From positions 62,001-126,000 of the forward strand of contig NW_027191460.1 in assembly GCF_011745625.1 (NCBI RefSeq): DNA of 64,000 nucleotides, in the 5' to 3' direction. The notes beneath the pieces were generated by a model, which ran no database searches, was not told the DNA's origin, and saw nothing but the letters and a program-made list of their open reading frames with translations. A program made the position numbers and the translations under genes. Shown in pieces: positions 26,301-62,658 of this stretch (the first letter of the stretch is position 1; each line of letters starts with the position of its first letter). Source of the DNA: Cladosporium halotolerans. Its lineage: Eukaryota.

Positions 26301-27698
26301 TCTGCCACGAACCCACCTCTGATGACCCCGGATAGCTACGCCATGGCTGCGCAGAAAGCCAAGTCACCGTCCCATGAGCGCGAGGCTGAAACGCCTGCGC
26401 CCGCGCCCGCGCAGGAGCCGAGTCCGAAGGCGTCAGCTCCTTCTGCGAAGCCGACCGCAACACCTGCCGTCCCAACGGCTGTCGACACCAACATGCAGGA
26501 TTTCCTCACGAAAGAGTTTACTGGCTTGTACCAGAAGCTCGATCAAGATAAGCGCGTGGCAGATGCATCTAGTGCTGCGAAGCAAGACGCCATTCTACGC
26601 CTTGTGTCCAGTACGCTGACAGAGAACGTGGAGAGCACCCTCCACAAGATCGTCAGCACCAGCATTGAAAGCAAGGTCGTTCCTCACCTGACCAACAACA
26701 CTTCGAAGGTCATCGAGCGTAAGCTGTCCGAGACTCTGAACAAGCAGGTCGGCGACTCTATGGCGAAGGAGCTGAAGGCTGCTGTCCCCGCTGCGATCTC
26801 CGCTGCTCTTCGCGATGGACAGGTGACTCGCGCCTTGTCGGCCCACATTGTTGATGAAGTCACCAAGCAAGTCAAGATGGACATGGGCGGCCTTGTGCAG
26901 CGCTCAATGCAGACCGTGCAGACGAACATGGCCTCCCAAATGACGCAGTCCTCTCAATCCACGCAAAAGGCTATCCTCGACGTCGAGTCCAAGCTCAGCG
27001 CCAACATTCGCGAGATGTCGCAGCACCAATCTAAGCAGAATGAGATGCTGGCGCAGCTTACCTCTAGCGTGCGTGACCTCGCTTCGATGGTGCAGAGCAT
27101 GAAGACAGAGCACGGTCGTCTTCTTGACCAGCTTTCTCAGCAACCGCATGCTCCTCAAGCTGCGCAGCGTGGCGTTGAGCCGGAGCCTGAGACCTCATCG
27201 ACCGGAGAGCCAACGGAAATCGCGAGGCTCACGCAGATGCTGAAGGAGACGAACTACCAGCAAGCCACGATCGAATGGCTGCAGTCGCCCAACCAGGCCG
27301 AGCTTTTCGATAATCTCTTCATGTACCTCAACCCGCTGTACCTTCAGCAGGTCTCTTCTCTGGTGGCCCTTTCTGTCTCTGCGGCTATCACGTCCAGCTT
27401 CGAGACCAATGTTGACAAGCGTCTGGACTGGCTTGGCACCATTGTGTCGAACATTGACACCGCTGTAAGTTCACCTCACATCTTCTTATAGCTTGGTAGG
27501 AACAATTTGCTGATCTCACGTCAAACACAGGACCCAGACATTCGCGACGTCGCACCCAAGATCATGGACGTGCTTCACCAGCGCCTGCAGGGCGCCTACA
27601 TGCAACTCGCCGAGTCGGAGCCGCGCGACGACCACGCCTTGCGCAAGATGTTCGCTCTTACTAGGCAGATCGTGGACGTAAGAACCATGCTTGGATGA
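23370..27698 (+). CDS. EDC4: EDC4/Pdc1-like mRNA-decapping scaffold (WD40 propeller plus C-terminal helical domain)
   Basis: 1373-aa ORF plus last exon after intron 27465-27530. Disordered N-terminus with LLNLL/FLLNLL helical motifs, WD-like KVKFWDI and ILQLWDL, and a coiled C-terminus. Confidence 0.8.
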
Positions 27699-28455
27699 GT
27701 ACAATCCTCAGACAGATCGCGCTGTATCTGTATTTCATGCGCCACGAGTATGCGGGGGATGATGAGATGAAGGGCTAATGCTGGGATGGAGGCTCAGAGG
27801 GAATCCAATGCTTGTAGTAATGGAGTGAGAGGTGGCGCCATAGCGTGTTAGCCTGTATCAAAGCGTGTTTAGCTAATCGAATGTCGAGTCCAGGAATGCT
27901 CTTATGCGCTGTTAAGGAGAAGTAGGGAGGCGAGATGAGGGTGAGACCCTGTGGATCCTTACTTTATGCTATACCGAAGCCGCTATTCCGTGACCAAGGA
28001 CTGCTTGCTGTGAGTAATCGCATCGCTTTCTACAGACTTGAAAGTCTCCTCTGTAGGACACGCTCGAGTGGTACGCGTATCCTAATGTACCAACATGATC
28101 TTCCTGGCCATGCATAGAGCTAGCGGTGTTCGCATGTGGGACGGGGCGGATGCGTGTCTGACGTGTGTCGATCGTCCGCGTCAAATGCGATGCGGCCTGG
28201 CCCGAGCGCGGAAACGTTGGTCGCCGTTTCACCCTCTCACAACGGAAAGGGATCGGGATCCATTGAAAGTTGGCCTGATATCGCTGCACACAACACAACA
28301 CGTCCTTGCGCAACCTCAGCTCACGACTCACCTTTGCCTACCAACTCGTATACTCGAACAACACGTGGCTACGTGCGCTCTCTAACTGCGATCGCTTTGC
28401 ACTCAAGCGCAGCCCACCACTACAATCACAAGCCCGCGCGCGATAGGCCGCAATC

Positions 28456-53893: not shown

Positions 53894-55460
53894 TGTCGTT
53901 GTTGTTTGTTGGCGATATAGGAATTGAGAATTGGAAACGCTCAAGCCGAGAGATTGGTTTGGTATGGTATGTCTGTGGCCTAGAGCTGATTTCGCTCTTG
54001 GATGCCACGGGTACTGCTGGTGGTATGGTCGCTTGTCGACTTTGTCAGTGAGTACGACCCTTGTCTTGTCCAGGGAGACAGTCACAGCCGTTCAGATGCA
54101 GAATGAAGTATAGGATCGTCTCCTGGCGTCATCTAGTCTCCGCCAGAGATGTATCTTATGTCGATATGTCGTTCTAAGTGTGAGACGGAGTTGCGGGTGT
54201 TACAGGAGTCAAGACGGCAAGCTTCGTCAAAATACCTACCGGATCCTGATAGCAGTTCCCGTCGCAAGCATTTGATACATTATGGACTGGAAAATGAGGC
54301 CATCAAGCTTCACTTGAGCTCGCGGGCACACTCGCGCGCGAGCTGGCGGCATTCACGGTTCGCTCCATAATATTCGTGTAATCATACCGAAGGGGGGAAG
54401 GAATTATCGCAATCATACATCAGGCTATGACGATGAGGCCTCGGACACTTGAAAAGAGAAGTGAAGATGGTCGGTCCTGTTCTTGTCTTGGTTGTGATCT
54501 CTGCGCAGGATCTCACTGTGTTCTGCCCACGGAAATCTTTTTGTACCTGGGCACCAACTTACTTCCGAGGCTCTGATACGAGTCTAATATATATCCATGG
54601 CAAGTTCCGTGGCGGTACTCATTTCATGGGATCCGGAGGTAGATAATGTCGACGTTTTATCCCAATATTCCAGAAGCGATGTCCTGGCTTTGAGGCATTT
54701 CGGCCAAGCCGACTTCATGCTTTTCAGGCCTCCATCATGGACCAGCAAGGAGATAACTCGTGGAAAGACTTATCCTGGTCAGGTCTCATGACGCTAGGAT
54801 ACGGCAGTAGTTAGTCTGCTTGGCTTTCCGTAAGATGTCACCACTCATCGCTGGCGGTTCCGTAGATATCCGTCGAAAGGCGTAACGCCAGAGGAAAACC
54901 GTACCTAAAAATCCTTGGTATCCTTCCTGTTGACCTGTCCCTTCGAGTTCTCTCATGTTTTTCTGAGCAGGCACGAATGTTATCTGCGGTCGTCTTGATC
55001 GGCACATGCAGCTAGACTGCGCCCCCGGGTACGTCGACTTGACTGGCCCAGCCGCGGAAGTCTCCACTCATTTTCTGCAACGCGTGAATGGCGGTGGCGT
55101 GTGACTTGCCCCGGTGCTCGCCCGACGTCTGGCCAAATACACCTCGTGCCCGTCTGCATGTTTTAGATCCTCTTTGCCCATCGACAGCATCGCCTCAGAA
55201 TTGCATCGCCGCGCTCGACGAGAGCGCACCCGCAGCCGACATTACGGCAGGACTCTCTTCACCCCTTGGACACGTCAAACGGCCTCATGATTCAATAACA
55301 CGCGCTTGCATCCTGATCCACAGGCCCGGTTCTCGTCGGCCAAGAACTTATCGCACCGCAAAACGGGTTCGATAACCCACAACCCCAAGGCTTGTCAACG
55401 CCAAGCTTCAATCATTCCTCTTGGCTTGTGTAGGAACGGAACACGGCACGCGCCCCCGCC

Positions 55461-57325
55461 ATGCCTACCCTCTCCATTGTCAACTTCAACATCGTCTGCG
55501 CGACCGCAGGCGGGTTTGTAACCCTTTTTGGCCTGGTCTCGTTCTTGTGCAAGGAGAAGTTCTATCTCTCCGAGGCTCTGATCTCTTCCATTTTTGGAGT
55601 CATCTTTGGCCCGCATGCAGCAAATTTCATCAGGCCGTTAGACTATGCAAATGGTAGTGAGCTCGATCTCGAGACTATCACGCTTTACTTCACTCGTCTG
55701 GTTTTGGGAGTCCAGCTAGTCCTTGCTGGCGTGCAGTTGCCCAGCAAGTACCTCCGCAAAGAATGGAGGAGCTTGAGCATTTTGCTCGGACCGGGCATGT
55801 GTATCATGTGGATGGTTACATCGCTGTTGGTTTGGGCATTGGTGCCCGACGTCCCGTTTCTCTTCGCTCTCGCAGTCGGGTCCTGCGTCACTCCGACCGA
55901 CCCTATTTTGTCCAACAGCATCGTGAAGGGAAAGTTCGCAGATAAGAACATCCCGCCGAGTCTTCAGAAAATCATCATCGCCGAATCAGGCGCCAACGAT
56001 GGCCTAGGCTATCCCTTCCTTTTCTTGGCACTGTATTTGATCAAATACACAGAAGATCAAGGCCTTGGAACTACTGGAGGTGGCGCAGGCAGAGCAATGG
56101 GTCTGTGGTTTAGCGAGACATGGTGTTATGTTATCATCATGTCGGTGGCTTATGGAGCCATCGTTGGCTGGCTTGCAAAGGAGCTTTTGCACTGGGCTGA
56201 GGAAAGACGTTATGTCGACAGGGAGTCATTCCTCGTCTTTGCCATTACACTTGCAGTAAGCGCCTCCCCTCTTTACCTTTAGAACACCGCACTGATCAGA
56301 ATCAGCTATTCATCGTCGGCACCGTCGGCATGATCGGCAGCGACGACGTTCTCGCCTGCTTCATCGCCGGCAACGTCTTCACCTGGGACGACTGGTTCCG
56401 GCTCGAAACCGAAGACGACAGCCTGCAGCCCACAATCGACATGCTGCTCAACGTCGCCATCTTCATGTGGTTCGGCGCCGTCTGCCCGTGGCACATGTTC
56501 GTCGCCAACAACATCATCCCCATCTACCGCCTCGTGCCCCTCGGCATCCTCGTCCTCCTCCTCCGCCGCCTGCCCATGATCCTCGGTTTCCACAAGTGGA
56601 TCCACCAAGTCGAAGACCTTCGCCGCGCCTCCTTCCTCGGCTTCTTCGGCCCCATCGGCGTCTCCGCCATCTTCTACCTGTACATCTCCAAGGAATTTCT
56701 CCGCGACATCGAATACCAGGGCACGGAGCGCGAGGACGCCCTGCGGCTGGAAGAAATGCTCGACGTCGTCGTCTGGTTCCTCGTCGTGTGCTCCATCGTC
56801 GTGCACGGCTTGTCCATCCCCCTCGGCAAACTCGGCTTCTACCTCCCGCGCACCATCTCCACCGCCTTATCGACCGACCGCCTCTCCCTCGGCCTCAGCA
56901 CCGGCCGCGAGCCCACCGAAGCCACCACGCCCGCCGACCCGCAGACCAGCTCCAGCGACATCGCCAGCATCTTCCGCCGCCGCCGCGGCGGCGGCGGCCC
57001 CGCCGACAGCAGCGCCGCGCCCTCCACCGCGAACCCCAACACGCACCGGCTGCGCGAGGTGCCCTCGGGCCCGCTGCGCGCGGCGAAGTCGGACGAAGAT
57101 TTCCAGACGCCCGCGGCGGCGCAGGCGAACGGGTCGACTGAGTTCGCGAGAGACGTCGATGGCGGGAGCCTGCGGCCGCAGATCTCGCGCCCGATTCATC
57201 CGAGGGCGATCGGGCGCGCGGTGAAGGATATCCAGGCGGCGCAGGGGGCTAATGGGGAGCCTGGTGGCTTGCAGAGGAGTATTCGGTTTGGTGACGAGCA
57301 GGCGGGTCAGAGGGACAGTGATTAG
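55461..57325 (+). CDS. NHA1: Plasma-membrane alkali cation/H+ antiporter (Nha1/CPA1 family)
   Basis: KEKFYLSEA, CVTPTDPILSNSIVKGKFA, AESGANDGLG, GSDDVLACF, GFFGPIGV and SIVVHGLSIP. Intron 56256-56305. Confidence 0.93.
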
Positions 57326-57816
57326 ATTTAGGGGCTGAAGGGTGCCATTGATCTATAGAAGGCATTTATTAGCAGCGTTCTGGAGGGTGGCGAGAGGTGT
57401 GTGGAGGATGTCGCAATTGCATAGCGTCATAGGAGGACGGAATAGGATAGTTGGATGGTGGTGGTGGGGAGGAATGCGGCACGGTACAGAGAGTTGGCGT
57501 ATGTGGTGATCGAGGTTTATCCGTGACAGATACAATCTTCACCGCATTACAATAAGATCGAAAAGACTGTAAACCGAAAAAATCAGAAAACCCAAGAAGG
57601 TGCATAAGAGGGTACCAAGTCTGATCATTTGTCCTCTATTCATAATAAGAGCTATCATATCAAGAGCTATCACTTCAATAGAAAGAATAATATCCCCTCC
57701 CCCACTCGCAATCATACACGCTCGAAACTCGCGAACGCCCATCCAAGATCCCATCGCGTTAGCAATAAACCACACGAAACCCAACCAGCCCATCCAAACC
57801 ATCACTCCCCATCCTG

Positions 57817-58083
57817 TCAGGGAAAGTACCCATATTCGGGCACGAGGGGCGGCGACGGCGGCACACCGCGCATAGCGATGAGGCGTTCGCCAACCTCCCA
57901 ATCCGCCAGAATCGCCTCATGGATCTCCGGATCGTTCCTCCAATCGTACAGAGGCGTAGGGGGCGGCTCCGGCGTGACCGAAGGCTCGGGCTCCGGCGAA
58001 GGGACGGGCGACTCCGGCGGGCGAGCAGCCGGCGGCTCCAGCGGCAGCCCGGGGACGAGGATCCACTCGATGCGCGCGCGGTG
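57817..58083 (-). other. In-frame 88-codon extension downstream of the ARMC8/Vid28 stop codon
   Basis: The frame stays open from 58083 to TGA at 57819-57817. About 70 of 88 codons end in G/C and only 2 end in A (manual count). Confidence 0.6.
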
Positions 58084-61062
58084 CTACAGCGAGTCCATCT
58101 GGTGCAGGGCGACCTTGACGCGCTCCTTGACGTCGAGGGCCGGGTCGTTGGCGAGCGCGCGCACGGCGGCCTCGATGCCGACGGCGCGCAGCTCCTGCGT
58201 GCGCAGGCGGGCGTCGGCGCGGTCGCGCTCGTCTTCGATCCAGGTCAGGGAGTTGACGGCCCAGACGCAGTTGACGCGGACCTGCGGGTCGGCGTGGCTG
58301 AAGTGCGGGAGCCAGGCTTGGAGGAGGGGGCGCTGGGCGATGAGGAGCTGTTTGTGCTGGGGCGCGCTGTTGGCGAGATGGATGACGACGTGGGTTGCCG
58401 AGAGGATGATTTGCGTAGGGTTGTAAATTTGGCGGCTGGCGCCGTTTGCGCCGGGGGTTCCAGTGGAGGGTTGGCGTTGGGACACGGGGAGGGGCGCGAG
58501 TTTGGCGGTGATGAGGTCGTAGATTTTCTGGTGGCCGATCTTCGAGAAGACGTAATTAACCATGTCAGAGCAGTCCTCGCCGTGGAAGAGGTTGCGTAAG
58601 AAATCAAGTGCTTGCTCTTGAATAGCGAGATCATCGCGCCTGGCTTGTAGTTGCGGGTTCTCTTCAAGCTCCCTGACTGCGTATAGGTGCTTCTTGGTAT
58701 TGAAGCCTGAGGTGGGAGGCAGTGTCGAGCGTATCTGCGATGCTTGATAATGTGTGTTGGAAGGCTCGTCATACATGATCTCGCCATCTTCGTCGTCGTC
58801 ATCATCGTAGCTGTCATCGTGGCTCAAACTGATGGGTTCGTCCACGTCCATGGAAGAAGGGTTGAGCAAATCGATCTGCTCACCTGCAGCATTTGAGCTG
58901 CTCAATCCGACGCTCACGCCCCCACCATTTGCAAACAGAGTCTCATCTCGGGGCTGTCCTGCGATCGCTGCAACAAGCCAGCCAGTGCCAAGCTCTTCCA
59001 GCGTGTCGATCTTGAAGTCTTTGGGAGCCGACAGCAAAAGATGCTTCAGTGCCCAGAGACTTGACAGTCGAAGTGCTGGCGAGCTTCGCTTGGCGTGCTC
59101 GCAGAGCGTGCGCGTAACGCCGTATGTCATCAAGTCTTCTCTCATGGGACTGAAGTCTACCAGAAGATTTGTGCAGACGTTCGTCGCAGCGATCTGGACA
59201 TCAAGATTTTGATGTTTCAAGAGTTCGAAAAGCGGCTTTGCGACACCAGCATCAATCAAACTTGTTCGAAGCAGGCTAATACTACGCGACATGGACTTCG
59301 CGGCGTTACAAGCTGCCAAAATCACGGCTGTGGTGTTGCCATCTTTAGCACTCAGCTGGCCCTTGTTGGACATGATGCTGGCTTGCAAGTCCTGAGGGAA
59401 TGGCTTAAGAGAGTCGATGATGCATTGAATGACTCCAGCTTCCACGATAGCCTTGCGGTGGACGTCTTCTTTGTGGCCGATCGCCGCTACTGCCAGCAAA
59501 GCCCCTTGACGACAGCGCATAGAATGCATTATTTCGAGAGGCAGGCCCTTGTTGCCAAGCTGACAACTGGCAGGCTTCTCGCTTCCATCTGATGTGGCGC
59601 GGTTGGCAGGCCAGATTGGTTTTGCCAACGGCACATGGTCGAAGCTTTTTCTGAGGATTGGGCAGACATATTTAATCGCTCCAGCTTCGACTGCGGCGGC
59701 CTGCAAGTTTCTGTTGCACGAAATCAAGCTTGCGAGGACTTCGCAGCCAGACTCGCGGACTGCGGCCATCTCTTCGGGCTTGCGGGGGCTCTCTGTATCT
59801 CTGTATTCGAATCCATCTTGCACCAGCCGAACAGCAAGTGGCACAGCAAGAACGGTCATTTGACGCTCTCGATCCCTGGATTTTTGCGAAAGTTCGTGCC
59901 GAGGGAATGACCCGGTGTCTATCTCGACAGCTTCATTTACCATCGCTAACAGCTGGAGGGCCTGGATTCTCTGTGGTCCTTGGAAAAAGCGGACGAAATA
60001 GAGGAGCCAGCTGCAGACAGCATTGGCATGATCAATGTCACCCTGTGGAAGACTTGATTCTGCAACGCCGTTTTGCCTGTACGTCCGGCCACTCGGGAAA
60101 GAGCTGGACGAGCCGCCGAAGGAGACACTCTTGTTGGACGGGATGTGAAGAGGTGGGAGTAGACTGCCTTCTGCATTTGGCATTCCGTACTTGGGGCCCA
60201 TCATGTACCTCAGATCTCCTTCGCCAGGAGAAAAGTTGAGGAACATATCTTTTACTTGCTCTGAAAAGACAAATCTGTGGGCACGATATGTCGATCCGGA
60301 GACTAGCGATGAAACAGCTGCGATTATGTTGGGTACAGCAGAGGCCGGGGGTTGTGGGAGCAAGTGAGAAGTGTCGCTGCGGTAATCAATGTGCTTGTTC
60401 ACAATCGAGTGCGAAACAAGTAGGCCAGCGAAAGTGTCAAGGAATCCGTAATGCGTCAGAAAAGACCTGACGCTGTCTTCTTGTGCGGAGAGAGCGATGA
60501 TGTCGCAGACCAGCGGAAGCTGCTGCGGTGTTTGTTCAGTGCCGTATGACTGGCGTAAGATGCTAAGGAAGATCTCTGAGCTGTCATTGTTGAATATGTT
60601 GAGGCTTGGAACATCTGTTGTATCGCTGGTCTCGCGGGACAGTTTCCAAGCACTAGCAAGATTCCGCAGTGTCTGCAGCGTTGATGTGACCAATTTGGGC
60701 GCGCATCCTGTCCGTAAGGTCTGAGTAAGAGCCTCTACAGTCCCAGCTGCCACCAAGGGAGCCACATATGCCGTACCGCCTGTAGCCAGACTCCCGAGTA
60801 TTGTAGTAGCGTCGAGCCTGGCCTGGTCCTGTTGCGTCCAAGCTTGTGTATGTCCTATCGCTGTCCCATTTCGTTCGCCAGATCCCGCATGCGACACGAT
60901 GTTCACCAAAGTATCAAGGATTCCATCTCTTACTGCATGCTCTTTCCTCTGATCATGGCCGACAAGGCTATTCTTGATCTTCCTCAGACTCTCGATCTGC
61001 TGCTGCGCGGACTCAGCGCTTCTGAGTGCTTCGAGCGCGGCAAGAGATATCGCCTGTACCAT
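58084..61062 (-). CDS. VID28: Armadillo-repeat protein ARMC8/Vid28 (Gid5), GID ubiquitin-ligase subunit
   Basis: 992-aa intronless ORF with LRKIKNSLVGHDQRKE, SMSRSISLLRTSLIDAGV, CTNLLVDFSPMRE, SLWALKHL, IQEQALDFLRN and LDVKERVK. Confidence 0.88.
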   Translation of the reverse strand: MVQAISLAALEALRSAESAQQQIESLRKIKNSLVGHDQRKEHAVRDGILDTLVNIVSHAGSGERNGTAIGHTQAWTQQDQARLDATTILGSLATGGTAYVAPLVAAGTVEALTQTLRTGCAPKLVTSTLQTLRNLASAWKLSRETSDTTDVPSLNIFNNDSSEIFLSILRQSYGTEQTPQQLPLVCDIIALSAQEDSVRSFLTHYGFLDTFAGLLVSHSIVNKHIDYRSDTSHLLPQPPASAVPNIIAAVSSLVSGSTYRAHRFVFSEQVKDMFLNFSPGEGDLRYMMGPKYGMPNAEGSLLPPLHIPSNKSVSFGGSSSSFPSGRTYRQNGVAESSLPQGDIDHANAVCSWLLYFVRFFQGPQRIQALQLLAMVNEAVEIDTGSFPRHELSQKSRDRERQMTVLAVPLAVRLVQDGFEYRDTESPRKPEEMAAVRESGCEVLASLISCNRNLQAAAVEAGAIKYVCPILRKSFDHVPLAKPIWPANRATSDGSEKPASCQLGNKGLPLEIMHSMRCRQGALLAVAAIGHKEDVHRKAIVEAGVIQCIIDSLKPFPQDLQASIMSNKGQLSAKDGNTTAVILAACNAAKSMSRSISLLRTSLIDAGVAKPLFELLKHQNLDVQIAATNVCTNLLVDFSPMREDLMTYGVTRTLCEHAKRSSPALRLSSLWALKHLLLSAPKDFKIDTLEELGTGWLVAAIAGQPRDETLFANGGGVSVGLSSSNAAGEQIDLLNPSSMDVDEPISLSHDDSYDDDDDEDGEIMYDEPSNTHYQASQIRSTLPPTSGFNTKKHLYAVRELEENPQLQARRDDLAIQEQALDFLRNLFHGEDCSDMVNYVFSKIGHQKIYDLITAKLAPLPVSQRQPSTGTPGANGASRQIYNPTQIILSATHVVIHLANSAPQHKQLLIAQRPLLQAWLPHFSHADPQVRVNCVWAVNSLTWIEDERDRADARLRTQELRAVGIEAAVRALANDPALDVKERVKVALHQMDSL

Positions 61063-62658
61063 GGTCGTAAAGAGAACCAGAATCAGTATGTCATGCTAGT
61101 GCGCTAGACGTACATGGAACGGTCGAAGCTTGGTGCTATTGTAATTGAGCAACCAGTAGCTACCTTGCCTAGGTAGCTGCATGTGAAGCCGCACGTCACT
61201 CTCCGGACGCTCGCTTAGTGGAGCCTTGGGGGCGGGAGGGACCGGCCGGGGCCGCCGCGCTATCGAGCCCAGGTCTGAAGTCCACTGGAGTCAAGGAAGA
61301 AACTCCGGACCAGGCAAAGTGATGTACCTTACTATACAGGCAAATGCAGAGGATCGACATCACCCGGTGGCCCAAATCGAGCGTACAGTATTTCTTGATT
61401 GCCTTCTGCACAACGTCTGGCTTTTGAAGTCGCAAGTTTTGAGAAGTCTGAAGTAACACTCGAAAGCCAATAACAGAGGATGACATAGTTTAGCTCTGGA
61501 TTGCGTCTACCACGCCTCACGGCGGAGTCCTCGTGAGGCCTAATTACTAACATTCTACCCTCATGCTGTAGTCCGATGATCGCAGAGTTCTACTGACTCG
61601 AGGAGGCCATTTCCGTCATACAACAAGATTATCTCGCAGATGCTACATATATTAACGGTATATGCGGTGTACGACAGGCGTAGCGGACGGTATGGAGGCT
61701 TCTAAGTTCAAAGCTTTTTGAGAATAAGCACTCTAGACCCGAGGGCATGTAGACCAGCCCGTGGCATGGCAAACATGTTTACTGGCACGGCTATAGTCAT
61801 CTGGGACTCGCAGTCCCATGCTGAAGACTGCTTACTCATTTGTCAGACGTCTTGATACCGCGGCTAGCAGCGGTCTGGACAGCGGGCGAAATGGTGCCGT
61901 GTCTATGCAAAGCATGAAATGGAGGCAGCTCCGTGGCCACACTACTGACGTGCCGGTCCAAACATTGTCCACGTCGACGTCTGACGGGAAACCGTCCCGT
62001 TTGCACGACAGCCGAGATAGGCAGCGCCAGGCGAGGATTCCGCCTCGAGCAGCGGGACGAAATTGATGCCAGCGCGAGTGCGGTCGGCTTGCTGCCGCAA
62101 TACCGTGGTGTGGTTGCGTCAGGGAAGAGCGAGAACAGACAGGTCACCAGCAGGCGGTCATTGGCGAGGCGGCGGCGGGCCAGATGCTAGCAGCGATAAG
62201 GCGGATCGGGGCTGCGGCGAGCGACAGCAAGGTTTGCGTAGCTCGCGCGCCCGGGGGCCACGTGAGCGCTGTGAGCAGCTGTGTGGCTTGCCGCGCTGCC
62301 CTCGCCGCCAGCCCTAACCTCACGCACCCATTCTGACGCTGCAGCGCTGCACCGACTCTTCCGCCGACCGCACCAGCGTCTTCGCCATGCCCGGCCTGCC
62401 CACCGGCCTGCCCACCTCACTACTCCGCCCCTGCAATCCTCCTGCTGTCGCCCCGCCGCACTAGCCCGCGACACACCGCAGCGATCCCATATTCCCCTCG
62501 CCCGCCGCGTCCACCACCGCCCACACCCTCACCGCGCCGCCGCACGTCCCAGGAATTATGCGCCGGAGCCTGACCACGCGAGCGACGTCCGAGCTGTCCA
62601 CCACCCGCCCCTCCGCCTCCTCAGCCTCCGCCGCGCCCCGCCAGCCCTCTCCGCTCCC

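Follow-up and report, generated by a model that had tools for sequence, protein, structure and literature searches.

A conserved UAG stop in front of a coding-like tail in Gid5/ARMC8 of Cladosporium halotolerans and its relatives, possibly recoded by A-to-I editing

INTRODUCTION

What does it mean when a gene ends on a regular stop codon and the same reading frame continues behind it with the appearance of coding sequence? This question is raised by the gene for the ARMC8/Gid5 (Vid28) orthologue on the minus strand of a 64,000-nucleotide (nt) stretch of Cladosporium halotolerans DNA (NCBI RefSeq assembly GCF_011745625.1, contig NW_027191460.1, positions 62,001 to 126,000), here called the window, with positions counted from its first letter. 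In this study we compare the end of this gene with that of its orthologues. The explanation that we favour, with a probability of roughly 0.45, is that the TAG is a conserved stop that gates a coding tail, and that a long isoform is produced by recoding of the UAG, most likely through adenosine-to-inosine (A-to-I) editing. The elements of the locus are as follows:

58087 to 61062, minus strand: coding sequence (CDS) of the ARMC8/Gid5 (Vid28) orthologue, 992 amino acids (aa), intronless, with its ATG at 61062
58086 to 58084, minus strand: candidate recoded TAG stop in the context CUG UAG CAC, with the editable A at 58085
57820 to 58083, minus strand: in-frame tail of 88 codons, a Pro/Glu-rich linker followed by ...LYDWRNDPEIHEAILADWEVGERLIAMRG..., with a codon-usage signal in frame 0
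57889 to 57903, minus strand: tail codons 61-65, D-W-E-V-G, an apparent remnant (by MAFFT alignment) of the x-E-V-D/N-stop motif that ends the tails of relatives
57817 to 57819, minus strand: TGA terminator of the tail, 3' of which G+C falls

The open reading frame (ORF) of the gene extends from stop to stop over 61095..58087, and the protein ends in ...HQMDSL directly before the TAG. Its 992-aa product is 100% identical to database protein P0001, matches the Pfam Arm family with 22.4 bits (cut-off 20.6) and has human ARMC8 as its best solved relative (7nsc_E, E 5.6e-21). An orthologue from Septoria linicola carries the source name ARMC8/Vid28, and the nearest named relatives are found in Cladosporium species and other Dothideomycetes. 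Judged by these matches, the protein would serve as scaffold subunit Gid5/ARMC8 in the GID/CTLH ubiquitin ligase, where Gid5 binds Gid8/Gid1 and the substrate receptor Gid4.

RESULTS

Stop and tail are kept in ten close relatives

A scan of metagenome contigs yielded 45 loci, and 40 of these were examined at the C-terminus; the matches of the other five stop short of it and were left out, and an additional locus is truncated by the end of its contig. Ten loci (L001-L009 and L026) are 67-77% identical to the window over the last 250 aa and form the close set. TAG stands at the gating position, that is, where the 992-aa protein ends, in all ten close relatives, and in 11 of 11 loci when the window is included. 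Behind it, the same frame remains open for 41-84 codons, and the off-frames close after 1-37 codons, with the exception of L009, where frame +1 is open for 66 codons. Counted over the 697 codons of the ten tails, stops by frame number 0, 14 and 58. We also aligned the tails at the nucleotide level. The tails of the four pairs that align best contain 11 gaps, every one a multiple of three (6, 15 and 18 nt in one pair, 9 nt in another, 24, 6 and 9 nt in the third and 24, 9, 6 and 9 nt in the last); gaps in the 400 nt beyond the tail of the same pairs are mostly not. The ratio of non-synonymous to synonymous substitution rates (dN/dS), pooled from four pairs of which two share L008, is 0.60 in frame 0 of the tail (Fisher p 0.0016); frames +1 and +2 both give 0.92. 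Individual tails of relatives have a dN/dS of 0.3-0.6, the last 200 codons of the CDS one of 0.03-0.10.

The most conspicuous part of these tails is their end. All ten finish with x-[E/D]-V-[D/N]-stop, as LYEVD in five cases, IEEVD in two, and LFDVD, AEDVD and EWEVN in one each, and the codons of the motif show synonymous wobble (GTC/GTT/GTG, GAC/GAT, TTG/CTG, TAT/TAC). The tails are terminated by TGA in eight loci and by TAA in two, so that the choice of stop is free at the tail ends, unlike at the gating TAG. A second motif, RRNAI, occurs in the tails of L001, L002 (which also has RRNAV), L003 and L009. It resembles the Pfam family PKI (PF02827), which gives E 1.5e-4 for L002 and E 0.0098 for L001, with scores of 22.4 and 16.6 bits that lie under the cut-off of 25 bits; apart from these weak matches the tails gave no Pfam result. 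Taken together, the tails of the relatives are probably a fast-evolving, disordered linker that bears conserved short motifs.

In 25 more distant loci, which have no coding-like tail, the CDS ends on TAG in 7, on TGA in 10 and on TAA in 8. A search with the read-through product returned 61 orthologous proteins that match only up to the stop, none of them with the tail; nearly all end in ...RQ[ML][ED]SL at the same position. A tree calculated from the C-terminal 200 residues (23 rows, with L026 excluded as too short) places the window inside a 10-row clade (support 100/99) and sister to a Cladosporium-like group (86/77), with L005-L008 as the other branch of the window's clade. Since the window lies inside this clade, the ancestor of its lineage most likely had both the TAG and a tail ending in EVD.

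The tail of the window carries a coding signal

The G+C content of the window's tail by codon position is 0.76/0.545/0.795, and its third bases are 43 G, 27 C, 16 T and 2 A. As a reference for codon usage we took 6772 codons of 11 other ORFs in the window. Scored against it, frame 0 of the tail obtains a log-likelihood of -1.5 bits, the five other frames obtain -18.6 to -55.7 bits, and shuffled tails score -37.4 +/- 9.9 bits, with none of 2000 attaining the observed value. As a positive control, the same measure also picked the true last exon behind an intron at 27489. G+C amounts to 0.70 in the tail vs 0.43 in the next 300 nt. The tail matches no Pfam family, and a phmmer search of its 88 aa against 1.84 billion representatives returned only P0062 (74 aa, 97% identical), which evidently comes from the same species as the window, and one low-complexity match. 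AlphaFold2, given the final 350 aa of the protein together with the tail and an alignment of 11 sequences, reached a mean predicted local distance difference test (pLDDT) score of 49, and the uninformative values of 30-39 in the tail go with a predicted disordered region with a low-confidence helix at tail residues 52-71.

The initial annotation of this stretch had described some of these properties from the letters alone. Its 88-codon in-frame extension to a TGA exists on the minus strand with exactly the peptide noted, and its composition counts hold (third-position GC 0.795, second-position 0.545, 2 of 88 codons ending in A). It had also observed that no early ATG is present; the first Met is indeed tail residue 71, and a separate gene is not supported. 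An acidic, Trp-containing helix had been proposed as well, and here a helix is predicted at the place given above, although with pLDDT values of 30-39 only.

We also compared the contigs of four public runs (X1, X5, X6 and X12) over 57300-59300. These contigs are assemblies from which rare variants are dropped, their run type ('RNA?') is a guess, and only listed differences were counted, with up to 12 more outside the listing. Three of the runs, 95-99% alike, have contigs that cover the TAG and show no listed difference at 58084-58086. The independent assemblies and the ten close relatives thus agree that the TAG is a genuine stop, and an assembly error is not supported.

A second Dothideomycete clade has several in-frame TAGs

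A similar pattern is found in a second clade of the tree (L014, L015, L020 and L025; support 98/97), whose nearest named relatives are Dothideomycetidae sp. 11243, Myriangium duriaei, Elsinoe and Dothideomycetes sp. NU457. In all four loci the CDS reaches a TAG and continues in frame with V-x-N-L-D-G, encoded with synonymous wobble and placed at three different spacings. The tails of L014 and L015 (176 and 168 codons) are clearly homologous, and within them ADI-TAG-DYLGYDV of L015 aligns with ADI-W-DYLGYDV of L014, so that a TAG stands opposite a Trp codon (TGG). Both loci share a further TAG, which is followed by Y-x-x-P-R-R; in L014 another 82 codons come after it, with 0 stops in frame 0 vs 5 and 4 in the other frames, until a TGA beyond which stops appear in all frames. 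L020 has three TAGs before an RG-rich end that resembles the one of L025, a weaker case as the sequence is of low complexity. The in-frame TAGs of this Myriangiales/Dothideales-like clade lie at L014:1920-2700, at L015:655-1298 and in L020 from the TAG onward. The annotated proteins of second-clade fungi all end at the first TAG, and the read-through product of L014 (residues 625-816) found no match among proteins of 448-1428 aa.

Base context and predicted fold of the TAGs

Across both clades all 20 in-frame interruptions are TAG (11 in the window's clade, 9 in the second clade). The second base after the TAG is a purine at 20 of 20 sites (18 A, 2 G) vs 38 of 73 out-of-frame TAGs of the same genes, and of the 19 sites that could be classified, 12 have the A of the TAG in a predicted hairpin loop, vs 30 of 73 background TAGs. 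The 11 loci of the window's clade have fold z-scores between -2.84 and +1.21 and share no structure. In L009 (575-665), L004, L026 and L003 the RQME codons (CGACAGAUGG) can pair with CCAYGAGUYGG, located some 30 nt 3' of the TAG, to form a long stem that holds the UAG in its apical part. This stem has 13 perfect pairs in L009 (z -2.84); it is no general feature, and the window lacks it.

Fungal mRNA editing by the tRNA deaminase Tad2/Tad3 prefers U at -1, A or G at +1 and +3, and hairpin loops, and conserved TAGs that are wrongly treated by annotation pipelines are likewise typical of it (PMC11156358, PMC11169179, PMC13123824). By its letters the TAG of the window suits the base preference, with U at -1 and a purine at +1 and +3. 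Furthermore, the TAG of the aligned loci is conserved, has TGG opposite it at one site of the second clade and is never replaced by TGA or TAA, as would be expected of an editing site.

DISCUSSION

How a gated tail might work

According to the explanation that we favour, the TAG would be a genuine conserved stop at which most transcripts yield the 992-aa protein, and the 88 codons would be this species' copy of a tail kept coding in Cladosporium-like relatives. The long isoform would arise only when the UAG is recoded. A-to-I deamination of the middle A would convert UAG to UIG, which might be read as UGG and hence as Trp, and the editor would be an activity of the tRNA-adenosine-deaminase type, as in the stop-loss editing of Sordariomycetes. 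Whichever of editing or readthrough overrides the stop, the long isoform is probably made whenever this happens. The EEVD-like ends and the RRNAI motif in the tails of relatives suggest that it would recruit other partners via such short motifs; the gated tail could add partners to the GID scaffold. Alternatively, the tail could lower protein stability, as described for Fusarium stop-loss tails (PMC13123824).

The initial annotation had suggested a regulated long isoform of a GID subunit and had named a conserved stop plus a conserved downstream frame as the pattern that would support it. That pattern is present in the relatives, including the dN/dS values, and where a sense codon was looked for in orthologues TAG was found instead in ten of ten close relatives. 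The core of this earlier interpretation is thus supported by comparison and is the best reading of the relatives. It is uncertain for this particular species, whose tail lacks the conserved C-terminal motif and whose strain variants are rich in non-synonymous changes (see below).

Several results weigh against our explanation, and many of them concern the window itself. A profile of the relatives' tails finds no significant match in any of its three frames (E 0.26). All ten relatives close their tails with x-[E/D]-V-[D/N]-stop; in the window WEVG is internal, with another 24 codons after it, so that a free C-terminus of the EEVD type is absent, and WRNDP stands in place of RRNAI. MAFFT sets ADWEVG of the window under the terminal ELYEVD and aligns E-P-x-V-T-P...D-W with the middle of L005 and L008; at the codon level TGG GAG GTT GGC GAA of the window stands opposite TGG GAG GTT AAT TGA of L005. 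Apparently both the final Asp/Asn and the former terminator were lost, and 24 codons were added; the tail would therefore be altered and may be losing its function. Among the listed strain differences, 4 synonymous and 9 non-synonymous variants fall into the tail, compared with 10 and 3 in the adjoining 404 codons of the CDS, and the density of variants is about 3-6% in the tail vs about 1.2% in the CDS. Run X1 has 8 substitutions within 14 nt at 57889-57902, which turn DWEVG into ATERE; X5 and X6 differ there by a single synonymous change. The cluster in X1 could reflect a complex mutation or a conversion tract, or it could be an artefact of assembly. Moreover, the three frames behind the TAG are open for 88, 107 and 54 codons in the window, and other long ORFs of the window are trailed by 48-141 open codons, so the openness of the tail is uninformative.

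Further objections concern the recoding itself. That none of the 61 orthologous proteins has a hard-wired tail fits a stop that is needed, yet no protein record confirms translation of the tail. The A at 58085 is unpaired in the minimum free energy structure of +/-30 nt but occupies a bulge rather than a hairpin loop, and the fold of the window is no better than that of shuffled sequences (z +1.0). The hairpin enrichment over all sites is weak, and the 20 sites are non-independent, with about six sites in related sequences. The host is a Dothideomycete and thus belongs to a lineage other than those with demonstrated mRNA editing. In the available part of PMC11156358, Sordariomycetes and Pyronema (one Pezizomycete) are the only fungi with documented A-to-I editing of mRNA; it was not found in Aspergillus nidulans or Botrytis cinerea, and other classes are still to be determined. 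A literature search combining A-to-I, mRNA editing and Dothideomycetes gave Fusarium papers only, none of which reports editing in Dothideomycetes. Finally, a change of TGG to TAG is simply an easy mutation.

One peculiarity of the window's tail may be noted beside these points. The letters WRND (tail residues W48-D51, 57937-57948) also occur at the end of L030, L031 and L035, distant orthologues (33-37% identical) with normal Gly-rich C-termini that end in ...HGWRNDSRG-stop. The shared WRND may be due to chance (estimated p 0.03-0.05), or the tail may derive from an ancestral longer C-terminus that was cut by the TAG.

Other ways to explain the locus

It might also be possible that ribosomes pass the UAG with a near-cognate tRNA and thereby produce a small constant, or a regulated, share of long isoform. 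We regard such readthrough as the leading competitor, though a somewhat doubtful one. In comparisons, this process is classically recognised by a conserved stop with a conserved coding frame behind it, functional C-terminal extensions by readthrough are established in fungi (PMC4207609), and no editing machinery is known in Dothideomycetes from the available text of PMC11156358. The interruptions themselves are more difficult to reconcile with it, since 20 of 20 are TAG and none is UGA, with up to three in a single gene, and one of them aligns with Trp, which is not usually inserted by near-cognate decoding of UAG. Readthrough sets elsewhere are mostly UGA. C at +4 weakens translation termination, and the window does have a C there, a feature to which the initial annotation had drawn attention. 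However, six of the 11 loci have G directly behind the TAG, three have A and two have C, and because it is not conserved the C is not the feature under selection. CAR-type readthrough contexts include an A two bases behind the stop, so the preponderance of A at this site would suit readthrough as well; the full UAG-CARYYA context occurs in none of the loci, and the downstream structure is as inconsistent as the z-scores given above. Editing is therefore favoured over readthrough only moderately, because the lineage is without documented editing, the sites are non-independent and TGG mutates easily to TAG.

The tail could also be a relic, that is, an ancestral recoded tail that is unused or irrelevant in this species, with 57820-58083 now a 3' untranslated region (UTR) bearing an ancestral coding imprint. 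The lost terminal motif, the missing profile match, the ratio and density of the strain variants and the three open frames would all agree with such decay. Against it, the TAG has been retained, the 264-nt tail contains no stop or indel in three related strains, the frame-0 codon usage is unmatched by 2000 shuffles, and G+C remains coding-like until the TGA. Near-neutral, fast change is moreover normal for disordered tails, as the dN/dS of 0.3-0.6 in the relatives indicates. We consider a relic unlikely. A tail that was never coding, only an open frame in a GC-rich 3' UTR, is very improbable: 70% G+C makes stops rare and leaves three frames open here and frames open behind other ORFs, but the comparative evidence from ten relatives, the position of the window inside their clade and the frame-specific codon usage speak against chance.

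Equally remote is a solution by splicing, with the tail as a last exon and the TAG in a retained intron or acceptor, or by a small separate gene. It is true that CTG-TAG includes both GT and YAG, and that the window offers a real example of splicing in a 1411-aa ORF at the TAG at 27489, where a GTAAGT donor lies just upstream and the last exon continues in frame. At the Gid5 stop the sequence is GTAGNN without G at +5 in the window, L005, L006, L008 and L026, and in L007 (TTT TAG) no such donor is present. An intron scan (donor score at least 3 plus a branch site) gave no intron that keeps the long ORF. Use of the TAG as acceptor, already judged less likely in the initial annotation, is not favoured either: no donor with a score of at least 3 is found within 400 nt upstream, the conserved GTs are Val codons, a CTRAY branch site is missing from the nearest 60 nt, and the window's tail contains no YAG. 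Conservation starts with the first codon after the TAG (EDEATSRRR / EDEDTSRRR; ENEAMSW / QNEAMIW), and the contigs of the four runs show no joints. A separate gene would have no ATG before codon 71, and in L001 and L002 none at all. As for the example mentioned, the 68 codons behind the TAG at 27489 (27465-27700, plus strand) are the last exon after an ordinary intron, with no recoding.

Relation to known systems

Stop-loss A-to-I editing of UAG in Sordariomycetes affects FgDBF2, FgMOB1 and FgCDC14, and 403 genes in Fusarium graminearum (PMC13123824). The Gid5 tails share with these cases, as far as the available description goes, a TAG that different species retain, a C-terminal extension predicted to be disordered and gene callers that stop at the TAG, as well as U at -1 and purines at +1 and +3; the edited A of those cases often lies in a predicted hairpin loop, for which the Gid5 sites show the weak enrichment given above. 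They differ in their Dothideomycete host, in the A of the window that lies outside a hairpin loop, and in being known from DNA alone. Unlike the Fusarium stop-loss tails, which appear there as generic destabilising extensions of 11-27 aa, the tails of the relatives end in a conserved short motif. A second form of editing, premature-stop-correction editing, is described for CHE1 and PUK1 of Fusarium (PMC11169179, PMC4817773). It likewise involves several in-frame TAGs per gene in conserved CDS and an annotation truncated at the TAG, and a TAG at a Trp position, as in L015 vs L014, would be of the same kind. Unlike those cases, the pattern here is seen at the DNA level, and it is confined to L014, L015 and L020 of the second clade; the window does not show it.

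Programmed readthrough produces fungal peroxisomal isoforms (PMC4207609) and concerns the E3-ligase substrate receptor FEM1B (PMC11385324). A conserved stop, an in-frame extension with a short terminal motif and an E3-ligase subunit as target are points of likeness; unlike in the fungal cases, which in the available text have a short UGA context, the stop is always UAG and the context is not conserved. Literature on readthrough together with Gid5, Vid28 or ARMC8 was not found among the matches listed. With regard to the motifs, EEVD C-termini of Hsp70/Hsp90 dock to TPR co-chaperones. The ends IEEVD, AEDVD, LYEVD and LFDVD of the relatives, ten of ten fitting x-[E/D]-V-[D/N], resemble them by sequence, and RRNAI in four relatives resembles the pseudosubstrate of PKI (PF02827), with Pfam scores under the cut-off. 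Unlike these systems, the window has neither motif intact, with WEVG internal and WRNDP in the other place.

What could follow from these observations depends on the mechanism. By comparison alone we find TAG-only in-frame interruptions of conserved CDS in two Dothideomycete lineages. If editing is true, the phylogenetic range of fungal mRNA editing would widen; if readthrough is true, an E3-ligase scaffold would undergo conserved UAG readthrough without a known context. Either way, the annotation of Gid5/ARMC8 in these fungi would overlook an isoform that bears conserved docking motifs. Recoded stops in front of a conserved extension, as in Gid5, are of a kind already known, and it is editing in Dothideomycetes that would possibly be new; it might then connect a glucose-responsive E3 ligase with chaperone and PKA partners. 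The bolder proposal, that Dothideomycetes have a TAG-specific A-to-I mRNA editing with Gid5/ARMC8 as a conserved target, and that it switches on a tail with an EEVD end of the Hsp70/Hsp90 type and, in Cladosporium proper, a PKI-like PKA pseudosubstrate, which links the ligase to chaperone/PKA partners depending on stage or stress, we put forward only tentatively and hold to be on the unlikely side.

Further features of the locus

The contigs of X1 and X5, which come from different studies, end at 57749 and 57748, about 70 nt past the TGA of the tail, and the contig of X6 reaches 57641. The shared contig end at 57748-57749 could mark the 3' end of a transcript, if the runs, whose type is guessed, are RNA. 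No tRNA genes were found within the 64-kb window. The convergent neighbour of Gid5 is a Na+/H+ exchanger gene on the plus strand (55434-57325; PF00999, E 4.4e-25 and 5.9e-9) that ends with a TAG at 57323. As its end at 57325 is about 490 nt away from the Gid5 tail, no neighbouring gene overlaps the tail. The exchanger gene is split into two ORF pieces that overlap around 56201-56282, and we therefore place an intron there.

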